A stretch of 15,910 bases of DNA, taken from a virus. Shown here piece by piece: positions 2,606 through 15,910 of the stretch. How positions within the stretch are numbered: the stretch's first letter is position 1; every line of letters starts with the position of its first letter. Position numbers and translations under genes: made by a program. The notes beneath the pieces are model-generated. The model made no database searches and was not told the DNA's origin. It was given only the letters and a program-made list of their open reading frames with translations. The DNA is taken from the UHGV virus genome UHGV-0065555, one strand, 5' to 3'.

Positions 2606-3667
2606 TTAATGCTCTGCCGCCAAAGTGCCGCCATCATCAACTGTCACCGGTTTCTCCATTACGTATGCTGACCATTCAGGAGAATAGAATGGTTGCAAAA
2701 ATTTAGAAAATTGTTCTGTATCAAATTTAATTTCACCAATGTACAAGTAGTTATATATATTACTGTAGTTTTGAAGCTGAAATCCGTAAGCTAGTTTTAA
2801 TATCTTTTTAGATAGATAAAATGCAGCCTCAAGTGATTCGGCTAACATTGATTCTGTGGGGGTGAACGTTCTTATTTTAGTGCCGTTGATTTTTAACTCT
2901 ATATAGGCTATTGAGATACAATCTACGCATAAAGTATCTAATAATTTAGCTATGTTATATGAAATTGTATTTAATCTGGTAAGGTGATCTTCTGCATTTG
3001 AATGGGGTGTAACCTTATCTTTTGATAAGTTATTATTAATGGTATCTAGGATTGACAATATACTTTTTTTAAAGTTCTCGTCTGGTGAATAATTGGATGT
3101 GATATCCATTGACGATTCTGTATATATATTGGAATATAATAAGTATGGGTTTGAGATTTTAATTTCATGAGTTGTTAGTATTTTAATTTTGTTGCTATCA
3201 TTGTAATTATAATATTTTGATGCGTCATCTACAAAGCTTTGCATCGTAAAGCTTGATATTTCTTTAATTTTATCTACGAAATTTTTCTCATGAGCAAAAT
3301 GTCTATCGATTGCATTTTTGATTTCAGATGAATTAATTTGTGCTTCGGTTTGTATCGTTCTGTGAATGTTATTTACTATGGAAGCTAATGGTACAGAACT
3401 TGCGAGTATCAATAATGGGAATTTGCTTATCTCATAGAATCTGGCATATCCGTGAGCAGAAAGAACAGGTATTTTACCAAACCATGCAAATGCTCCAAAA
3501 TAAATGAATGACAGCAGTGGTACTGCAATTGAAATCCAAAATAATTTCTGTTGAAATAAATTTCTTTTATCGAGAATGTACCACTTTTTATATATTGATA
3601 CAAACGCAAAAAGAATAATTGCCAAAATATACACAATAATTCCAGTAAAGCTAGTATTAATGTTCAT
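2606..3667 (-). CDS. AT-rich predicted membrane protein (moron) between int and att; function unknown
   Basis: 353 aa; two to three N-terminal hydrophobic helices (FTGIIVYILAIILFAFVSIY, LFWISIAVPLLSFIYFGAFAWF) then an N/K/I/Y-rich soluble region. Very AT-rich versus neighbours. Its ATG overlaps the int stop (ATGA on the minus strand). Confidence 0.55.
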   Translation of the reverse strand: MNINTSFTGIIVYILAIILFAFVSIYKKWYILDKRNLFQQKLFWISIAVPLLSFIYFGAFAWFGKIPVLSAHGYARFYEISKFPLLILASSVPLASIVNNIHRTIQTEAQINSSEIKNAIDRHFAHEKNFVDKIKEISSFTMQSFVDDASKYYNYNDSNKIKILTTHEIKISNPYLLYSNIYTESSMDITSNYSPDENFKKSILSILDTINNNLSKDKVTPHSNAEDHLTRLNTISYNIAKLLDTLCVDCISIAYIELKINGTKIRTFTPTESMLAESLEAAFYLSKKILKLAYGFQLQNYSNIYNYLYIGEIKFDTEQFSKFLQPFYSPEWSAYVMEKPVTVDDGGTLAAEH

Positions 3668-7265: not shown

Positions 7266-8119
7266 GCACCATCCTGAAATGGGCGGGAAATAAAACCGCC
7301 ATTATGTCCGAACTGAAAAAGCATCTTCCTGCTGGCCCGCGACTGGTTGAACCTTTCGCGGGTTCCTGTGCAGTGATGATGGAGACGGAGTACCCCAGCT
7401 ATCTTGTTGCGGATATTAATCCTGATTTAATCAACCTCTATAAAAAGGTTGCTGCTGATTGTGAATCGTTTATATCTCGCGCCAGAGTTTTATTTGAGAT
7501 CGCAAACAGGGAGGTGGCTTATTACAACATAAGGCAGGAGTTTAATTACTCAACTGAAATTACTGATTTCATGAAAGCGGTATATTTCCTGTATCTCAAT
7601 CGTCACGGTTACCGTGGTTTATGTCGCTATAACAAGAGCGGGCATTTCAACATTCCCTACGGTAATTATAAAAATCCGTATTTCCCTGAAAAAGAAATTC
7701 GCGCATTTGCAGAAAAAGCCCAGCGAGCAACGTTTATCTGCGCCAGCTTTGATGAAACGCTGGCGATGTTGAAGGCAGGGGATGTGGTGTATTGCGATCC
7801 GCCGTATGACGGTACGTTTTCCGGCTATCACACTGATGGTTTCACTGAAGATGACCAGTATCACCTGGCATCCGTTCTTGAACATCGGTCATCAGAAGGA
7901 CATCCGGTCATTGTTTCTAACAGTGACACATCCCTGATCCGTTCGCTGTATCGCAATTTTACTCACCACTATATCAAGGTAAAACGCAGCATCGGTGTGG
8001 CAGCTGGCGAGGGTAAATCAGCAACAGAAATCATTGCTGTTTCCGGGCCGCGCTGCTGGGTGGGATTTGATTATTCGCGTGGCCTGGATAGTTCTGCCGT
8101 GTACGGAGTACGTGCATGA
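7262..8119 (+). CDS. dam: DNA N6-adenine methyltransferase, Dam/D12 class
   Basis: Start [11 protein letters not shown] at 7262 (ATGA overlap with the upstream gene). SAM-binding motif EPFAGSCAV and catalytic DPPY motif ([10 protein letters not shown]). Confidence 0.85.
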
Positions 8120-10530
8120 GCCATGCCGATATGAACAACTGCTGCGGCTTTAACGAGGCTGCCGCAGCGTTCTCATGGAACAGCCCGAAAAAGGCCATTA
8201 ACCCTTATCTGGACCCGGCGGAAGTTGCGCCGGTTTCTGCGCTTTCAAACCTGATCGCTCTGTACGCTGCCGATAACGAGCAGGAACACCTGCGCCGCGA
8301 GGCACTGAGTGATCAGGTCTGGGAGCGTTATTTCTTTAATGAATCCCGTGATCCTGTCCAGCGCGAAATGGAGCAGGATAAGCTCATTAGTCGGGCAAAG
8401 CTGGCGCATGAGCAGCAGCGTTTTAATCCAGATATGGTCATTCTGGCGGACGTCAATGCCCAGCCTTCCCATATCAGCAAGCCGCTGATGCAACGTATTG
8501 AATACTTCAGCAGCTTGGGCAGGCCAAAGGCTTATTCCCGCTATTTGCGTGAGACGATTAAGCCATGTTTGGAGCGACTGGAGCATGTACGCGACAGCCA
8601 GCTATCTGCATCTTTTCGTTTTATGGCAAGCCATGTAGGGCTGGACGACCTGCTGATTCTGCCTGAAATGAGTCAGGATCAGGTGAAACGCCTGTCTACT
8701 CTTGTCGCTGCGCATATGAGCATGTGTCTTGATGCCGCTTGTGGTGATTTGTACGCCACCGATGATGTTAAGCCAGAAGAAATCCGCAAGACATGGGAAA
8801 AGGTGGCAGCAGAAACCCTGCGACTGGATGTTATCCCGCCTGCGTTTGAGCAACTTCGTCGGAAAAGAAACCGCCGTAAACCCGTGCCCTATGAACTCAT
8901 TCCGGGTTCGCTGGCGCGTATGTTGTGCGCCGATTGGTGGTACCGGAAATTATGGAAGATGCGTTGCGAATGGCGGGAAGAGCAGTTGCGTGCTGTTTGC
9001 CTGGTCAGCAAAAAAGCATCTCCCTATGTCAGCTATGAAGCCGTGATGCATAAACGTGAGCAGCGCCGTAAGTCGCTGGAGTTTTTCCGTTCTCATGAAC
9101 TGGTGAACGAAGACGGCGACACGCTGGACATGGAGGATGTGGTAAACGCCAGCAGCAGCAACCCGGCGCATCGCCGCAATGAGATGATGGCCTGTGTTAA
9201 AGGTCTGGAGCTTATCGCAGAAATGCGCAGTGACTGTGCCGTTTTCTACACTATCACCTGTCCGTCGCGTTTCCATTCCACGCTCAATAACGGCAGACCA
9301 AACCCGACCTGGACAAACGCGACGGTAAGACAAAGCAGCGATTATCTGGTCGGCATGTTTGCTGCATTTCGTAAGGCTATGCACAAAGCCGGGTTGCGCT
9401 GGTATGGCGTGCGGGTGGCTGAACCGCATCATGACGGCACAGTTCACTGGCACCTGTTGTGTTTCATGCGCAAAAAAGACCGCCGCGCCATTACTGCATT
9501 GTTGCGTAAGTTTGCCATCCGTGAAGACCGCGAGGAGCTGGGCAATAACACGGGGCCACGCTTTAAGTCTGAGCTGATAAACCCGCGCAAAGGTACGCCA
9601 ACAAGCTACATCGCGAAATACATCAGTAAGAACATTGACGGGCGTGGTCTGGCTGGCGAGATCAGCAAGGAAACGGGTAAATCCCTGCGTGATAACGCTG
9701 AATACGTTAATGCCTGGGCGTCTCTGCATCGTGTTCAGCAATTCCGCTTCTTTGGCATTCCGGGGCGTCAGGCTTACCGTGAACTGCGATTGCTGGCTGG
9801 TCAGGCGGCAAGGCAACAGGGGGACAAAAAAGCAGGTGCGCCGGTACTGGATAACCCGCGCCTTGATGCAATCCTGGCTGCTGCTGATGCTGGTTGTTTT
9901 GCCACCTACATCATGAAGCAGGGCGGCGTACTGGTTCCCCGCAAATATCACCTCATCAGAACTGCTTATGAAATCAACGAAGAGCCGACCGCCTATGGCG
10001 ATCACGGTATTCGTATTTATGGCATCTGGTCACCCATTGCAGAGGGCAAGATCTGCACTCATGCGGTGAAGTGGAAAATGGTTCGTAAGGCCGTTGACGT
10101 TCAGGAGGCGGCAGCCGACCAGGGCGCTTGCGCCCCTTGGACTCGTGGCAATAACTGTCCCCTTGCTGAAAATTTGAACCAACAGGAGAAAGATAAATCA
10201 GCTGATGGGGACCCCAGAACGGACATTACCCGCATGGATGACAAGGTGTTGCACGATTACCTGCACAGTATGAACAAAAAGGAGCGCCGGGAATTGGCTG
10301 CAAGGTTACGTCTGGTGAAACCGAAACGGCGTAGAGACTACAAACAGCGAATTACAGACCATCAACGACAGCAGCTCGTCTATGAACTGAAATCCAGAGG
10401 ATTTGATGGCAGCGAGAAAGAGGTCGATTTACTCCTTCGCGGCGGCAGTATTCCGTCAGGAGCAGGCCTGCGTATCTTCTATCGGAACCAGCGTTTGCAG
10501 GAAGATGATAAGTGGCGGAACCTGTATTAA
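8116..10530 (+). CDS. A: Replication initiation endonuclease gpA (rolling-circle HUH nuclease)
   Basis: 804 aa; tandem-tyrosine motif YIAKYISK and histidine-rich H-x-H region (HHDGTVHWH); start overlaps the dam stop (ATGA). Size and position match P2/186 gene A. Confidence 0.85.
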
Positions 10531-11459: not shown

Positions 11460-12428
11460 TTATTTATAATATGCTGACTTCAAAACCACTCGTCTTTCAA
11501 CCTGCTGTGATAGCATTACCGCGTTAGTCCAATCTTTTGGATACCTTATTTCTTCTATAACACGAATATAAGCACATACTTTATTTTTTCCCTCTCCTTT
11601 GGCATAAGTAACCTCTAGATTATTAAATTTCAATAAGTGCTCTCTTCTTTGGTAAGTAAAACAGCCGTAATCACGGACATCAGAAGAAGTAATAGCATGA
11701 GTTGAAGGAAACCGAACTAGTAAATTTCTCAAGTAGGGAATAATGTCCAAACTCGTTGCTTTGTTTTCTTCTCTGCGACTCTTTCTGAACATATGTCTCC
11801 AACCCAGCCGTGTAAGCTCGATTTTCCCAAGCACCGGAGATGTGATTTCTTTCTGTTCAGAATAACGTTTTTTAACAAACGCTCGCCGATTATTAAGTAG
11901 TGAGTTTCTTCTTCTTACATGGATTCCTTTTGCTCCAGTTTCACCTGCACGTACCATGGACATACAGCGAGCCAGGTCAAACCGTGTGGCCGGAGTGATT
12001 AAGTGATATTCTCCATAAGTTTGGTTTTTAAGGGTAGTGTTTGGATGTATATAGGCCCAAAATGCTTTACGATTAGTTCTGTCAACCCAAACGACACATA
12101 TATGGTGAGTTGTCCTTTTGGCTGCTTTTTTTGCGGCCGAATTTAATACAAAACCTTTCTCTAATAAATGACCATAAGTTGCCCCTGATTTAACTTGCGA
12201 TAATATAAGCATTCTTTCTTTTGATGCCCATGGATGTTCGAAGGATAATATTAAATCTATTTTTGAATTGTCGTCTTCCCTGGAACCCCAGTGCCCCTCT
12301 CCTCTACAAGCAAGAATGAATTGACTCATTGCATAAGATTCGGCGTCACTGCCGTTAACTGAGTTAAACTGTCTTGTTTCTAGCACAGTTGGTATTGGTC
12401 GTGATGCAAGTAAACTGAAAGATCCCAC
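11460..12428 (-). CDS. AT-rich cargo protein of unknown function, possible PD-(D/E)xK-like nuclease fold
   Basis: 322 aa; GTG start at 12428 with a GGAGAG RBS 8 nt upstream (first in-frame ATG would be at about 12329). Strongly AT-rich relative to phage core genes. N-terminal segment KIDLILSFEHPW...LILSQVK could be a degenerate D...(E/Q)xK motif, which is speculative. Basic C-terminal region. Confidence 0.55.
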   Translation of the reverse strand: MGSFSLLASRPIPTVLETRQFNSVNGSDAESYAMSQFILACRGEGHWGSREDDNSKIDLILSFEHPWASKERMLILSQVKSGATYGHLLEKGFVLNSAAKKAAKRTTHHICVVWVDRTNRKAFWAYIHPNTTLKNQTYGEYHLITPATRFDLARCMSMVRAGETGAKGIHVRRRNSLLNNRRAFVKKRYSEQKEITSPVLGKIELTRLGWRHMFRKSRREENKATSLDIIPYLRNLLVRFPSTHAITSSDVRDYGCFTYQRREHLLKFNNLEVTYAKGEGKNKVCAYIRVIEEIRYPKDWTNAVMLSQQVERRVVLKSAYYK

Positions 12429-12501: not shown

Positions 12502-12720
12502 TTAATTCAATGTATTGGCTAAAATTAAGACATTTATAGCTATATGTACTAGATAACATAGCGTTGTTTTCCTTTTGAAATCTCTTCTTGTGGTAACACA
12601 ACAGTATTTACTCAAGTAGTTTGTCACTGCATGGGGAGATTTTGCTATGTCCGCGGCATCATACAGATGCGATAGATTTTCAGCATGACCTTGGGTAGCA
12701 AATCTGTAGGTATCATCCAT
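12502..12720 (-). CDS. Small hypothetical protein upstream of the 322-aa gene
   Basis: 72 aa; ATG at 12720 with a GAGGTG RBS 2-3 nt upstream; no recognisable motif; may be spurious. Confidence 0.3.
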   Translation of the reverse strand: MDDTYRFATQGHAENLSHLYDAADIAKSPHAVTNYLSKYCCVTTRRDFKRKTTLCYLVHIAINVLILANTLN

Positions 12721-12860
12721 TGCACCTCAAAGTAACTCTGGTGCATACCTATGCTGCATGAAAATGAATGATCGCTAGTGGATCGTTTAAGTCGAAGCCT
12801 GCCAGTTCTGACGAGCTTTTGCTTATGTTATGCAACTGCATGAAAACCACTACACAAAGC

Positions 12861-12890
12861 GGGCAGGCGTGGCGGGGATACGAGCGCGCG
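12861..12890. other. Candidate cos (cohesive-end) site of the prophage
   Basis: GGCGTGGCGGGGATACGAGCGCGCGCT at 12867 resembles the P2/186 cohesive-end region as I recall it (P2 GGCGAGGCGGGGAAAGCAC, 186 GGCGTGGCGGGGAAAGCAT); it lies between A and Q where cos is expected. Match is partial and from memory. Confidence 0.35.
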
Positions 12891-13036
12891 CTAAGTCATA
12901 TAAGAGTTATATATTGATTTGATTGCTGGACATGCATACAGTATCGCTCTATCATCTAATAAATCTTAGAGTATTTGGCAATGTTTGGATAAAATGGAAC
13001 CTAACTTATTCATAATCCGCTAAACAGGGATGTCAG

Positions 13037-13951
13037 ATGCCATACCAATTGGTAGAGCTTAGCCCCGTAGCTAACGATCTTGAACAGTTAGGAACCAAAG
13101 AGAAGTTTTGGTTCTATTTCTCCGATGACACTGTAAATTTGCAGTTGTTTAAGTACTCTAGGCCAGGTACTGGCGAGCATTGGTCTGAAAAGTGTGCTGC
13201 TGAGTTATGTCATTTGCTTAACATTCCACATGCTAGCTATGATTTGGCGCGATACAATGGTCGATTCGGTGTGGTGACTCAGAATATCATTCCATCTGGT
13301 TTCCGGATGGTAATGGGAAATGAAGTGCTTCACAGTTCGACATTCGATTATCCTGGGCCTTTACAAGCCGGGGAAAAGCCGGTAAGGGTCAGAGAACACA
13401 CTGTCACAAGGGTATTGGGTTGTTTGGATAGGGAATCTATCAAGCCTCCTCCGAGTGTATATGATCTAACCGGGCTAAATGCAGCAGATGTATTTTGTGG
13501 ATATTTGATGCTCGATGCACTTGTGAGTAATCAAGATCGCCATCATGAAAATTGGGCGATCATGCTTAACAATGAAACTGGTGAGCAGTTTTTGTGTCCA
13601 ACATACGATCATGCCGCTAGTTTAGGAAGGGAGATGTTAGATGATGAGCGTAACGAACGGCTTAATACTAAAGATAAAAATCGACAAATCCCATGTTTTG
13701 TAAGAAAAGCTCGCTCTGAGCTATTCAAAGCAAAAACTGATAAAAAGCCCTTGCTGACCGTTGAAGCATTTCAACATGCAGTTGAAGGGAGAGTTGCCGC
13801 TCGCGACCATTGGTTAGGTAAGTTGAGCGTTTTAACAGAAGATTCCATTACAGATGTGTTTAACCAAGTGCCTTCATCGTGTATATCCGACAGTGCACGT
13901 AGATTTGCAACGTTAATGGTAATGGAAAATCGCAGAAGGTTACTAGAATGA
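13037..13951 (+). CDS. HipA-family Ser/Thr kinase, core kinase domain only (HipT-like)
   Basis: 304 aa. Gly-rich/ATP loop LGTKEKF (HipA ..AGAQEK..); catalytic loop LVSNQDRHHENWAIM (HipA ..GATDGHAKNFSV..); Mg-binding CPTYD (HipA ..TPFYD..). Lacks the HipA N-subdomain. AGGGA RBS. Confidence 0.8.
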   Translation: MPYQLVELSPVANDLEQLGTKEKFWFYFSDDTVNLQLFKYSRPGTGEHWSEKCAAELCHLLNIPHASYDLARYNGRFGVVTQNIIPSGFRMVMGNEVLHSSTFDYPGPLQAGEKPVRVREHTVTRVLGCLDRESIKPPPSVYDLTGLNAADVFCGYLMLDALVSNQDRHHENWAIMLNNETGEQFLCPTYDHAASLGREMLDDERNERLNTKDKNRQIPCFVRKARSELFKAKTDKKPLLTVEAFQHAVEGRVAARDHWLGKLSVLTEDSITDVFNQVPSSCISDSARRFATLMVMENRRRLLE

Positions 13952-14688
13952 CTAATACAAACTCCGTTTACGTCGCATGGCAGGCACCAGATACCAGAGA
14001 CTGGCATGTTGTTGGTAACTTGCAAGAGCGCAAATCGGGGTATGTTTTCAGGTATACCAAAGGTGCTCTTAAATCTACTAAATTTACAAAGTTTAGCGGC
14101 ATGAGTGATGTTCGTGAAACTTATGTTTCGGAAGAATTGTTTCCTCTTTTTAAAAATCGCCTTTTATCACCGAGACGTCCAGAGTATCCGAGTTTCATTA
14201 AATGGCTTGGATTTGAAGAAGATAAGGTAAATCCTATCGATATTCTTGCTCGCTCGGGAGGCTTACGAAGCACTGATCAGCTGCAGATTTTCAAAAAAAT
14301 TGATGTTGATTCTGATGGTAACTTTGAGCATTTTTTCTTCTTACATGGACTTGGTTACTTAAATAGCTTAGCTAATGCTCGTGTATCTGAATTGAAACCG
14401 GGGCAAATTTTGCGTCTTTGCTTGGATCTTCAAAATGAATACGATGGGGATGCTGTTGTCGTTCGTGCAGATAAACCAGCTGAAATCGTTGGTTACTGCC
14501 CTAGGTATTTAAGTAATGATATCAAGAAGATGTTATTGGATGATCCAAAATCAATCACTTTAACGGTCGAAAAGATTAGCGATGATGCTCCTCATAACTA
14601 TCGGTTATTATGTAAATTATCAGGAGTACTAAGCCAAGCCTGTCAATCGACGCTGATTCCTCAGGATGAGTTTGAACCTATTGAGTAA
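13948..14688 (+). CDS. HipA N-subdomain-like (HipS-like) protein fused to a C-terminal HIRAN domain
   Basis: 246 aa; ATG overlaps the kinase stop (ATGA). N-terminal part aligns by eye to HipA residues about 10-100 (VGNLQERKSGYVFRY vs VGELTKLANGAHTFKY; LFPLFKNRLLSPRRPE vs FNFFDNLLPDSP; DILARSGG vs DLLSEIGRD). C-terminal part GQILRLCLDLQNEYDGDAVVVRADKPAEIVGYCPRYLSNDIKKMLL fits the HIRAN consensus. Confidence 0.7.
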   Translation: MTNTNSVYVAWQAPDTRDWHVVGNLQERKSGYVFRYTKGALKSTKFTKFSGMSDVRETYVSEELFPLFKNRLLSPRRPEYPSFIKWLGFEEDKVNPIDILARSGGLRSTDQLQIFKKIDVDSDGNFEHFFFLHGLGYLNSLANARVSELKPGQILRLCLDLQNEYDGDAVVVRADKPAEIVGYCPRYLSNDIKKMLLDDPKSITLTVEKISDDAPHNYRLLCKLSGVLSQACQSTLIPQDEFEPIE

Positions 14689-14694
14689 ATGAAG

Positions 14695-14718
14695 AAAAGC
14701 CACCAAACGGTGGCTTTT
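14695..14718. terminator. Bidirectional rho-independent terminator shared by the convergent HipS-HIRAN gene and Q
   Basis: aaaaGCCACCaaacGGTGGCtttt: perfect 6-bp GC stem flanked by an A-run and a T-run. Confidence 0.65.
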
Positions 14719-14722
14719 CTTA

Positions 14723-15760
14723 TTATGGGACTATATCTAGCGAGTAGGTATTAAACTGTATCGCCTCCTTGCCAAGCCAATCATTCATCTCCTGTAATCG
14801 CTTTTGTAGTGGCATTAGCTCATTTCGGACGAATACACGGCTTGCCTTTTCCACATCCCCAAACCCCCCAACATTATTCGGCATAATCCCCATCATTTGC
14901 GGCGGCACGCGGTGCGCTGCCATCATGTCATCCCGACTCACGTTCTTGATGTTAAGAAATTCATCCTTCGCCGCGACTTCTGACAATGGGATGATCTGAA
15001 GCCCGTCTTTTTTGCCGTTAGGTGAGTACATAAACAGGTTGCGGAAGTTGCCTGGACCTTTGGCGCTTTTCATCGCGTTGCGGAGGTTGTTCACATCCTC
15101 CTGATTCTGCGCGGCATCGGTCATGTACATGATGAAGCCTGCATGGCTGCCGTTAATGTAATACTTACGGCGGAACAACGTGGCGGACTCGTTGAGCAGG
15201 GCTGACGGAATGGCAGAAAGATAACCGGGCAGGCCGTAGATCTCCTGGTTGATATCCGGTTCCATCAGATGAAAGATGCTGCCTTTCGTGAACTGATACG
15301 GCTGCGTAGTCATGCCGTATTGCACAAACCAGTAGGTATCCAGGTCTAACCCGCGTCGGGTGTATTTTGCCAGAGCAGGCTCAAGGGCGATAACTTCACC
15401 GAAGCGGTTCGTGCGTTTCTCCAGGTAGGCGTTACCAAATACCAGATAGTCCTGCACAAAACGTGAAAAAGCCTGCTGGCTGAGCAGCGGGTGGGGGATG
15501 TAGGTACTGGTCAGAATGTTGCATTTCACCGCAATTGGTGAACTGTGATGCACGGCGGCGCGGAAGGTGCGCGCCAGTCCGTCAAAGCTTACTGGCGGCT
15601 CATACCAGCGATCTGTCTGTACGCATTCCACATAGTCCAGTAGTTCGCGGCGGTCCAGAACAGGAACGGGATCACCGAAGCTGAATGCTTCGGCTGTAGT
15701 TTGACTTTTATGCTGGATCTGGTTCGTCGACGCAGCGCGGTTCTTCTTACTCTTTCCCAT
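14723..15760 (-). CDS. Q: Portal (capsid vertex) protein gpQ
   Basis: About 345 aa on the minus strand next to the cos region, as for P2 Q; real ATG at 15758-15760 (the ORF-track start at 15763 is TTG); start overlaps the stop of the upstream terminase gene. Confidence 0.8.
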   Translation of the reverse strand: MGKSKKNRAASTNQIQHKSQTTAEAFSFGDPVPVLDRRELLDYVECVQTDRWYEPPVSFDGLARTFRAAVHHSSPIAVKCNILTSTYIPHPLLSQQAFSRFVQDYLVFGNAYLEKRTNRFGEVIALEPALAKYTRRGLDLDTYWFVQYGMTTQPYQFTKGSIFHLMEPDINQEIYGLPGYLSAIPSALLNESATLFRRKYYINGSHAGFIMYMTDAAQNQEDVNNLRNAMKSAKGPGNFRNLFMYSPNGKKDGLQIIPLSEVAAKDEFLNIKNVSRDDMMAAHRVPPQMMGIMPNNVGGFGDVEKASRVFVRNELMPLQKRLQEMNDWLGKEAIQFNTYSLDIVP

Positions 15761-15910
15761 CAAAAAATCTCCACAATATTACTGGTATTGGCGGACTCGC
15801 CCTGCAGTGGTTCGTTAAACAGTGCGTGCATTGTTGCCCAGGCCAGATCGGCGTGGCTGGCTTCTTCGCTGCGGCTGGCTTCATAGGTTGGGCGGTTGCC
15901 ACTGGCGGTG
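15760..15910 (-). CDS. P: Terminase ATPase subunit gpP, 3' end only (5' end outside the window)
   Basis: Minus-strand frame open from the window edge to a TGA at 15760-15762 that overlaps the Q start (TGATG). Call rests on the conserved P-Q order of P2-like phages. Confidence 0.5.
   Translation of the reverse strand, partial: TASGNRPTYEASRSEEASHADLAWATMHALFNEPLQGESANTSNIVEIF

Follow-up and report, generated by a model that had tools for sequence, protein, structure and literature searches.

The hipIN gene pair described here occupies positions 13,037 to 14,688 of UHGV virus genome UHGV-0065555, a stretch of 15,910 nucleotides that is referred to throughout, at its full length, as the window. 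The window is a segment of the Escherichia coli chromosome. It opens with the end of the ypjA autotransporter gene (78-2315) and runs on into a P2/186-like prophage, with genes for integrase, CI, CII, Fil, a DksA/TraR-like protein, Dam methylase, and the gpA replication endonuclease (8116-10530). A low-GC stretch separates gpA from the minus-strand portal gene, and the distal part of this stretch contains the following features:

12866-12884, plus strand: cos cohesive end, GGCGTGGCGGGGATACGAG, the left border of the cargo slot, located from the ends of linear P2-like phage records
12927-12955, plus strand: candidate sigma-70-like promoter for hipIN (TGGACA-17-TATCAT, 10/12), 80 nt upstream of the start codon of hipI
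13037-13951, plus strand: hipI, encoding a predicted 304-aa Ser/Thr kinase core of the HipA superfamily without N-subdomain-1 (WP_001146828; PDC-M03A; phrog_8728)
13948-14688, plus strand: hipN, encoding a 246-aa protein with HipS-like and HIRAN domains (WP_000185757; PDC-M03B; phrog_8026)
14692-14721, both directions: bidirectional intrinsic terminator hairpin with a 13-bp stem (-21 kcal/mol, z -6.4)
14723-15763, minus strand: portal gene gpQ, the right border of the cargo slot (Pfam Phage_portal, E 3.7e-19; RefSeq annotation)

A two-gene cassette beside cos

The two open reading frames, of 304 and 246 aa, lie where an earlier sequence-only reading of this DNA had placed them. That reading had also proposed translational coupling, and the genes are indeed coupled through an ATGA in which the hipN ATG at 13948 overlaps the hipI TGA (13949-13951); this arrangement is conserved across phyla. 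It had described the pair as prophage cargo in the gap between cos and the portal gene, and had seen no gene for a HipB-like helix-turn-helix (HTH) protein upstream. Both statements stand: cos and the portal gene bracket the pair, which thus fills the gap, and a hipB-like gene is neither present here nor conserved in the 80 related loci described below.

The position of cos was obtained by comparison. Positions 12733-12899 form a conserved block that recurs in over 1200 E. coli genomes as well as in many P2-like phages. Linear phage records end within it at window position 12865 (SEN8) or 12884 (L-413C, P22H4), from which the 19-nt cohesive end follows as 12866-12884. (A search for the cos 19-mers of P2 and 186, with up to three mismatches allowed, gave no match; cos was placed through the record ends.)

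Several observations identify the space between cos and the portal gene as a slot for exchangeable cargo. The GC content is 38-43% at the hipIN module, compared with 52-54% for gpA and the portal gene. Further E. coli prophages have in the same slot the identical kinase, WP_001146828, together with either the HIRAN protein WP_000185757 or its near-identical variant WP_000185756, and the genes to the left of cos vary among the P2-like prophages that carry hipIN. The slot thus has the make-up expected of P2-like prophages: variable cargo between gene A and the portal gene Q, beside cos. The module itself is infrequent, being present in about 21-23 of 5426 complete E. coli genomes.

The cassette is self-contained. 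Its candidate promoter is a consensus match; the number of such sites in the region does not exceed the expectation from shuffled sequence, so the assignment rests on position. The terminator hairpin occupies the 34-bp gap between the convergent hipN and portal genes. In sum, hipIN is a two-gene cassette with its own (candidate) promoter and terminator, and is accessory cargo in a cos-proximal hotspot.

A catalogued module in a described hotspot

The pair is almost certainly a member of the hipIN/PDC-M03 group. Gerdes, Baerentsen and Brodersen (mBio 2021; PMC8262856) gave the name hipIN to modules in which a HipI kinase is followed by HipN, a protein with HipS-like and HIRAN domains, without HipB. 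HipI kinases, of 279-321 aa and without N-subdomain-1, fall into subclades of main clade XI of their Hip kinase tree. HipN was classed as a putative antitoxin, and the HipS-like domains of HipN proteins branch apart from true HipS; fused kinase-HipS-HIRAN proteins were termed HipL. Their survey held only 14 hipIN modules and does not mention the P2 hotspot as a location.

Comparison of the window pair with this description reveals zero architectural differences. HipI falls within the published size range, lacks N-subdomain-1, and carries an N-terminal Gly-rich loop at residues 18-25 with a Thr beside it; its Gly-rich loop and its catalytic and Mg2+-binding motifs are conserved; the downstream gene encodes HipS-like and HIRAN domains; and there is no HipB. 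The mixture of Proteobacteria and Cyanobacteria among its relatives matches the fourth HipI subclade described in PMC8262856. The adjacent genes also match the PADLOC profiles PDC-M03A and PDC-M03B over nearly their full length, again with no difference: HipI residues 2-304 on PDC-M03A positions 4-300 of 305 (E 2.1e-122), and HipN residues 1-244 on PDC-M03B positions 1-241 of 245 (E 3.4e-93). PDC-M03 is described elsewhere in the literature as HipA + HIRAN proteins. Less specific resources say little: PHROGs places both products in families of unknown function, and a search of the window proteins against NCBIfam gave zero matches.

The location has likewise been described. Rousset et al. (Cell Host Microbe 2022; PMC9122126) identified the cos-adjacent region between gpA and gpQ of P2-like phages as a hotspot for anti-phage systems. 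Their Table S5 lists WP_001146828 and WP_000185757, the exact proteins of the window, and their Table S6 includes, for a prophage hotspot of Vibrio, a pair labelled 'HIRAN-kinase'. The novelty that the sequence-only reading had implied for a kinase-first order with a HipS-HIRAN partner is therefore lost, since this is the defining organisation of hipIN. The locus is a catalogued hipIN/PDC-M03 module in a described P2 hotspot, and not a discovery.

HipI, a predicted kinase core

Judged from its sequence, HipI is a HipA-superfamily kinase core that retains intact catalytic residues and lacks N-subdomain-1. Conservation was examined in 44 homologues, one genome per species, with identities down to 36%. 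Three motifs are recognisable:

13088-13111, plus strand: Gly-rich (ATP-binding) loop, residues 18-25 (LGTKEKFW), from conservation across the homologues
13529-13555, plus strand: catalytic motif, residues 165-173 (NQDRHHENW), with the catalytic base D167 and N172; aligns with the CtkA catalytic loop
13604-13612, plus strand: Mg2+-binding motif, residues 190-192 (YDH), with D191; from conservation across the homologues

The Gly-rich loop contains the invariant residues G19, K21, K23, and W25, along with T20 and E22, which are conserved in at least 90% of the homologues. (T20 is a possible autophosphorylation site.) Because this loop begins as early as residue 18, no room is left for N-subdomain-1. 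Within the catalytic motif, N165, D167, R168, N172, and W173 are invariant, and the run D167-R-H-H-E-N172 is invariant or nearly so. Residues D191 and H192 of the Mg2+-binding motif, and K39, are invariant as well.

Taken by itself, HipI gives the Pfam HipA_C model a score of 20.7 bits (E 3.6e-4), below the cut-off of 30.5, but the domain is found in 30 of 31 HipI homologues, with a best E of 3.9e-9. A phmmer search of PDB sequences with HipI found nothing significant, and a profile made from close homologues reached CtkA alone, over its catalytic half (E 2.4e-4).

The AlphaFold2 model of HipI, made with 31 homologues, has a predicted local distance difference test score (pLDDT) of 83 and a predicted template modelling score (pTM) of 0.84, with low confidence for residues 99-118. 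Foldseek comparison with the PDB returns CtkA as the top match (E 4.6e-10; template modelling score, TM, of 0.65-0.72), followed by HipA (E about 1e-6, with about 40% of HipA covered and a TM normalised to the target of 0.38) and HipT (E 5e-5 to 1e-3). All three matches have probability 1.0.

HipN, a HipS-like fold joined to HIRAN

HipN comprises a HipS/N-subdomain-1 fold and a HIRAN domain, the latter with a conserved motif predicted to form a pocket for DNA 3' ends:

13960-14292, plus strand: HipS-like (HipA N-subdomain-1-like) domain, residues about 5-115
14326-14631, plus strand: HIRAN domain, residues 127-228 (Pfam HIRAN, E 1.1e-13, above threshold)

The AlphaFold2 model of HipN (pLDDT 89, pTM 0.84) contains both folds. 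The tabulated match values for HIRAN structures are 13.7 for a bacterial domain (PDB 3k2y), 11.3 for the HIRAN domain of HLTF, and 9.5 for that of Rad5. For the amino-terminal part, the tabulated values are 11.2 for HipS from 7vkb (99 of 102 residues), 10.9 for E. coli HipS from 7ab3 (98 of 100 residues), and 9.1 for HipA.

Known HIRAN domains bind DNA 3' ends rather than operators, and in HLTF a motif that includes Y93 and D94 forms the pocket that holds the 3' end. HipN conserves this motif, N163-x-Y165-D166-x-x-A169 (here N163-E-Y165-D166-G-D-A169), which in a 45-sequence profile aligns with N91-P-Y93-D94-K-N-A97 of HLTF.

The Pfam Couple_hipA model matches HipN weakly (E 0.018, residues 20-72), and recurs in 15 of 31 HipN homologues with a best E of 7e-4. 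Searches of PDB sequences gave nothing significant with HipN alone (phmmer) and, with a profile of close homologues, a weak match to bacterial HIRAN; the 45-sequence profile reached HIRAN structures and did not reach HipS. Thus, the case for HipS homology is made by the fold together with the weak but recurrent Couple_hipA matches.

These results bear out the description from which the analysis started: a 304-aa protein with the three HipA kinase motifs and without the N-subdomain, and a 246-aa partner in which a HipA N-subdomain-like region is joined to a HIRAN-like domain. Of the three Pfam hidden Markov models (HMMs), HIRAN alone is found above its threshold in the window protein; HipA_C falls short in HipI and Couple_hipA is weak in HipN, yet both return among the homologues.

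A proposed model for kinase activation by DNA ends

Gerdes et al. proposed that HIRAN recognises the ends of invading phage DNA, whereupon the kinase is activated and infection aborts (PMC8262856). A reading of the window pair as a putative toxin with a neutralising partner that may act in abortive infection agrees with this published hypothesis. By analogy with HipBST and with the HIRAN domain of HLTF, HipI would be toxic, HipN would neutralise it, and the pair would serve in defence.

The model can be put in four steps. In the lysogen, the HipS-like domain within HipN would dock on HipI and keep it inactive. Injection, replication, or degradation of DNA by a heterologous phage would generate free 3' ends (single-stranded or recessed) for HIRAN to sense. 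Sensing would then release or activate HipI. Finally, HipI would phosphorylate an essential host factor, so that growth is halted before the invader can finish its cycle.

Two considerations shape this model. The module sits in the gpA-gpQ region, a hotspot for anti-phage systems (PMC9122126), has low GC content and shifting neighbours, and is rare in E. coli; a defence context is suggested for these reasons. Moreover, the existence of fused HipL forms (PMC8262856; see also pFR108 below) speaks for a HipS-HIRAN part that serves as an integral regulator or sensor, and against a degradable antitoxin.

The hipIN family

The family was surveyed with one genome per species; among 147 relatives, 80 loci were kept. 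A co-oriented hipN homologue lies directly downstream of the kinase gene in 79 of the 80 loci, the exception being at a contig end, and most pairs overlap by 4 nt. Kinase-first order is therefore the norm of a large known family. Kinase lengths span 283-333 aa (all but three fall within 297-315 aa), and HipN lengths span 241-282 aa. The hosts include Enterobacterales, Vibrio, Endozoicomonas, many Nostocales and other Cyanobacteria, Acidobacteriota, Tepidisphaeraceae, Desulfobacterota, and Myxococcota. Neither an upstream HTH gene nor a third gene on either side is conserved in the 80 loci, and neither these loci nor the window contain a DEDD exonuclease like that of pFR108 or like the diDNases. 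The idea that the window pair is a decaying remnant was rejected, given the invariance of the catalytic and pocket residues and the retention of the gene overlap in different phyla.

At 50% identity, HipN-like proteins fall into 1632 clusters, nearly all of them stand-alone proteins of about 250 aa. Two members of the family are longer. P0255 (408 aa) has a 180-aa carboxyl-terminal extension with a weak match to pPIWI_RE_REase (E 0.0017). P0269 (419 aa), which joins secretin domains to the HIRAN half, is probably an assembly or gene-call chimera. As for flanking genes, translations of the Nostocales loci, read by eye, show a polysaccharide-deacetylase-like or gluconokinase-like gene upstream and a convergent carbohydrate kinase gene downstream.

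Beyond P2-like prophages, a hipIN pair lies beside the integrase gene of Vibrio phage 10N.222.46.E12_PE001 (PQ189286.1; locus L082, 4935-6649), with 37% identity to HipI. This 14.6-kb genome is a PM2-like (Vinavirales) temperate element of Vibrio cyclitrophicus, so hipIN is carried as cargo in an unrelated virus realm also.

This distribution bears on a possible role in the prophage life cycle, in which hipIN would couple DNA-damage or DNA-end signals to decisions about lysogeny, induction, or superinfection. The module lies immediately beside cos, unrelated temperate elements carry it next to integrase, and a Pf phage kinase module has a documented dual role in lysogeny and defence (PMC11341870). 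However, hipIN is rare among P2-like prophages: over 1200 E. coli genomes possess the conserved cos block, and about 23 of them have the module; it is freely swapped with unrelated cargo; and in Cyanobacteria it occupies non-phage chromosomal contexts as well. A core life-cycle function is impossible for a module so rare and so readily replaced, and we consider a life-cycle role of any kind very improbable.

Relatives with other architectures

HipBA of E. coli K-12 shares its kinase superfamily and catalytic motifs with HipI. Nevertheless, HipA is a protein of about 440 aa that contains N-subdomain-1 in cis; HipB, an HTH protein, neutralises it, and the gene order is hipB-hipA. HipA and HipT target aminoacyl-tRNA synthetases; the target of HipT is TrpS. 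The HipBST systems of E. coli O127 and Legionella (PDB 7ab3, 7vkb, 8ezr) have the order hipB (encoding an HTH protein), hipS, hipT, whereas hipIN lacks HipB, places the kinase first, and fuses the HipS-like part to HIRAN. Similarity of HipI and HipN to HipT and HipS is undetectable by HMM against the PDB.

The parallels with HipBST and HipBA raise the alternative of a classical type II toxin-antitoxin addiction module. Here, HipN would be a labile antitoxin, and the pair would stabilise the prophage through post-segregational killing, or promote persistence, with no part in defence; HIRAN would either replace the HTH of HipB as the autoregulatory DNA-binding part or be irrelevant. The HipS-like fold, the tight translational coupling, the absence of a separate HTH regulator throughout the family (80 loci), and the classification of HipN as a putative antitoxin (PMC8262856) are all in keeping with this view. 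Yet the would-be antitoxin gene lies downstream of the toxin gene, and the DNA that known HIRAN domains bind consists of 3' ends and not operators. Differential degradation is impossible for the fused HipL forms, an integrated P2-like prophage scarcely needs segregational stabilisation, and the slot is enriched for exclusion genes. Addiction appears unlikely as the role of hipIN.

Among solved structures, the one nearest to HipI is CtkA (JHP940) of Helicobacter pylori (PDB 3akj), at 15-17% identity; unlike HipI, CtkA is a stand-alone secreted kinase without a HipS or HIRAN partner. A second alternative starts from the observation that HipI lacks what HipN contains: HipN may be a required subunit, such that HipI and HipN rebuild a HipA-like kinase in trans and HIRAN tethers it to DNA 3' ends. 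The complex would then phosphorylate DNA-bound replication or recombination proteins of phage or host, interfering directly with the invader and sparing the host. The kinase target may differ in that case, because CtkA, and neither HipA nor HipT, is the closest solved kinase. Against this, a separate HipS neutralises the kinase in both solved HipBST-type complexes (7ab3 and 7vkb), and a required-subunit role for HipN seems distinctly unlikely, somewhat more so than addiction.

HIRAN domains of eukaryotic HLTF and Rad5 (PDB 4xzg, 6l8o) are parts of remodelers with SNF2 helicase and RING domains, whereas that of HipN is attached to a putative kinase regulator and its DNA binding is a prediction. 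The bacterial HIRAN protein lp_0118 (PDB 3k2y) is a structural relative of the HipN domain.

Proteins of the HipL type contain the same modules as hipIN (kinase core and HipS-like domain and, for HipL, HIRAN). In HipL all three domains form one polypeptide; in the window they are divided between two open reading frames, in different frames and with overlapping stop and start codons. The insert of pFR108 ('Exonuclease + HipA', from the P2 hotspot of E. coli TA255) encodes a DEDD exonuclease and a fused, HipL-type kinase that includes a HipS-like domain. Over 51 aa, the catalytic core of this kinase shares 37% identity with that of HipI, and the HipS-like region has a recognisable motif. Both the fusion and the exonuclease set it apart from hipIN.

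Weighing the model

A number of points weigh against a defence function. The pFR108 system was cloned (PMC9122126, Table S2), and was not among the three P2 systems active on a panel of eight phages. PDC-M03 is listed in PADLOC as a computational candidate system, without published validation, and a literature search for experimental work on hipIN found bioinformatic mentions only. (An apparent mention of HIRAN in Millman et al. 2022 proved to be the author name Hirano, cited among the references.) Furthermore, the Nostocales loci (L049-L081) place hipIN between conserved housekeeping-type genes, with no evident genes of mobile elements, a setting suggestive of stable residence in the chromosome of that lineage.

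On balance, the reading as a whole, in which hipIN is cargo that mediates DNA-end-triggered abortive infection through a kinase, stands evenly poised. That the module acts in phage defence or exclusion, considered by itself, we put slightly short of an even chance. The specific trigger, activation by DNA ends, is proposed tentatively and is open to considerable doubt.

A more speculative version, which we consider rather doubtful, treats HipN as an immune receptor that switches HipI on in response to DNA 3' ends or to short deoxy-oligonucleotide products of DNA breakdown. The latter trigger is hinted at by the deoxydinucleotide-specific DEDD nucleases that adjoin HipA + HIRAN clusters in other clades, namely in Actinobacteria (NAR 2025; PMC11706625). 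Three-gene 'DUF5051 + HipA_C + HIRAN' arrangements in P2 hotspots (PMC9122126, Table S5), along with the exonuclease of pFR108, provide a link to this association. If HipN were such a receptor, hipIN would be the first kinase-based bacterial immune system to be triggered directly by a DNA-end pattern, and its phosphorylation target may differ from the aminoacyl-tRNA synthetases of HipA and HipT.

Neighbouring genes

Several other reading frames in the window deserve mention. An orphan gene at 11460-12428 (minus strand; GC 35-40%) lies in that half of the hotspot which runs from gpA to cos. In RefSeq it starts with the ATG at 12329 (289 aa), but homologues are mostly 319-327 aa long, which favours the GTG at 12428 as the start, for a product of 322 aa. 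This protein has no significant match in Pfam, PADLOC, PHROG, or the PDB, the LPD3 model remaining below threshold (E 0.042). Some of its 174 homologues carry LPD3 (PF18798) and DUF4365 (PF14280), which we take to be a PD-(D/E)xK nuclease-like domain. The gene is missing from two further hipIN-carrying prophages that were inspected, and is a candidate for independent, single-gene defence cargo.

At the other end of the prophage, between ypjA and the integrase gene, a 353-aa reading frame at 2606-3667 (minus strand; about 30% GC) has phrog_17460 (unknown function, E 9e-47) as its sole match, with none in Pfam or PADLOC; it may be a second item of accessory cargo, located at the attachment-site end. 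Two small reading frames near cos have neither RefSeq annotation nor a family match: 12502-12720 (minus strand, 72 aa), and 12768-12917 (plus strand, 49 aa), which extends through the cos block and is unlikely to be a gene.

Implications

As the product of a genome scan, the locus adds nothing to existing catalogues. Its interest lies in what it offers to the hipIN hypothesis, in which DNA-end sensing by HIRAN would drive a Hip kinase into abortive infection, and which has been in print since 2021. The locus is a convenient and compact test case: 1.8 kb, native to E. coli, with its own candidate promoter and terminator, and with hotspot neighbours that include cassettes validated as defence systems. 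Demonstration here of toxicity, neutralisation, DNA-end binding, and phage exclusion would settle whether HipS-like domains found beyond HipBST act to inhibit or to sense, what role HIRAN domains play in bacteria, and which protein HipI phosphorylates.

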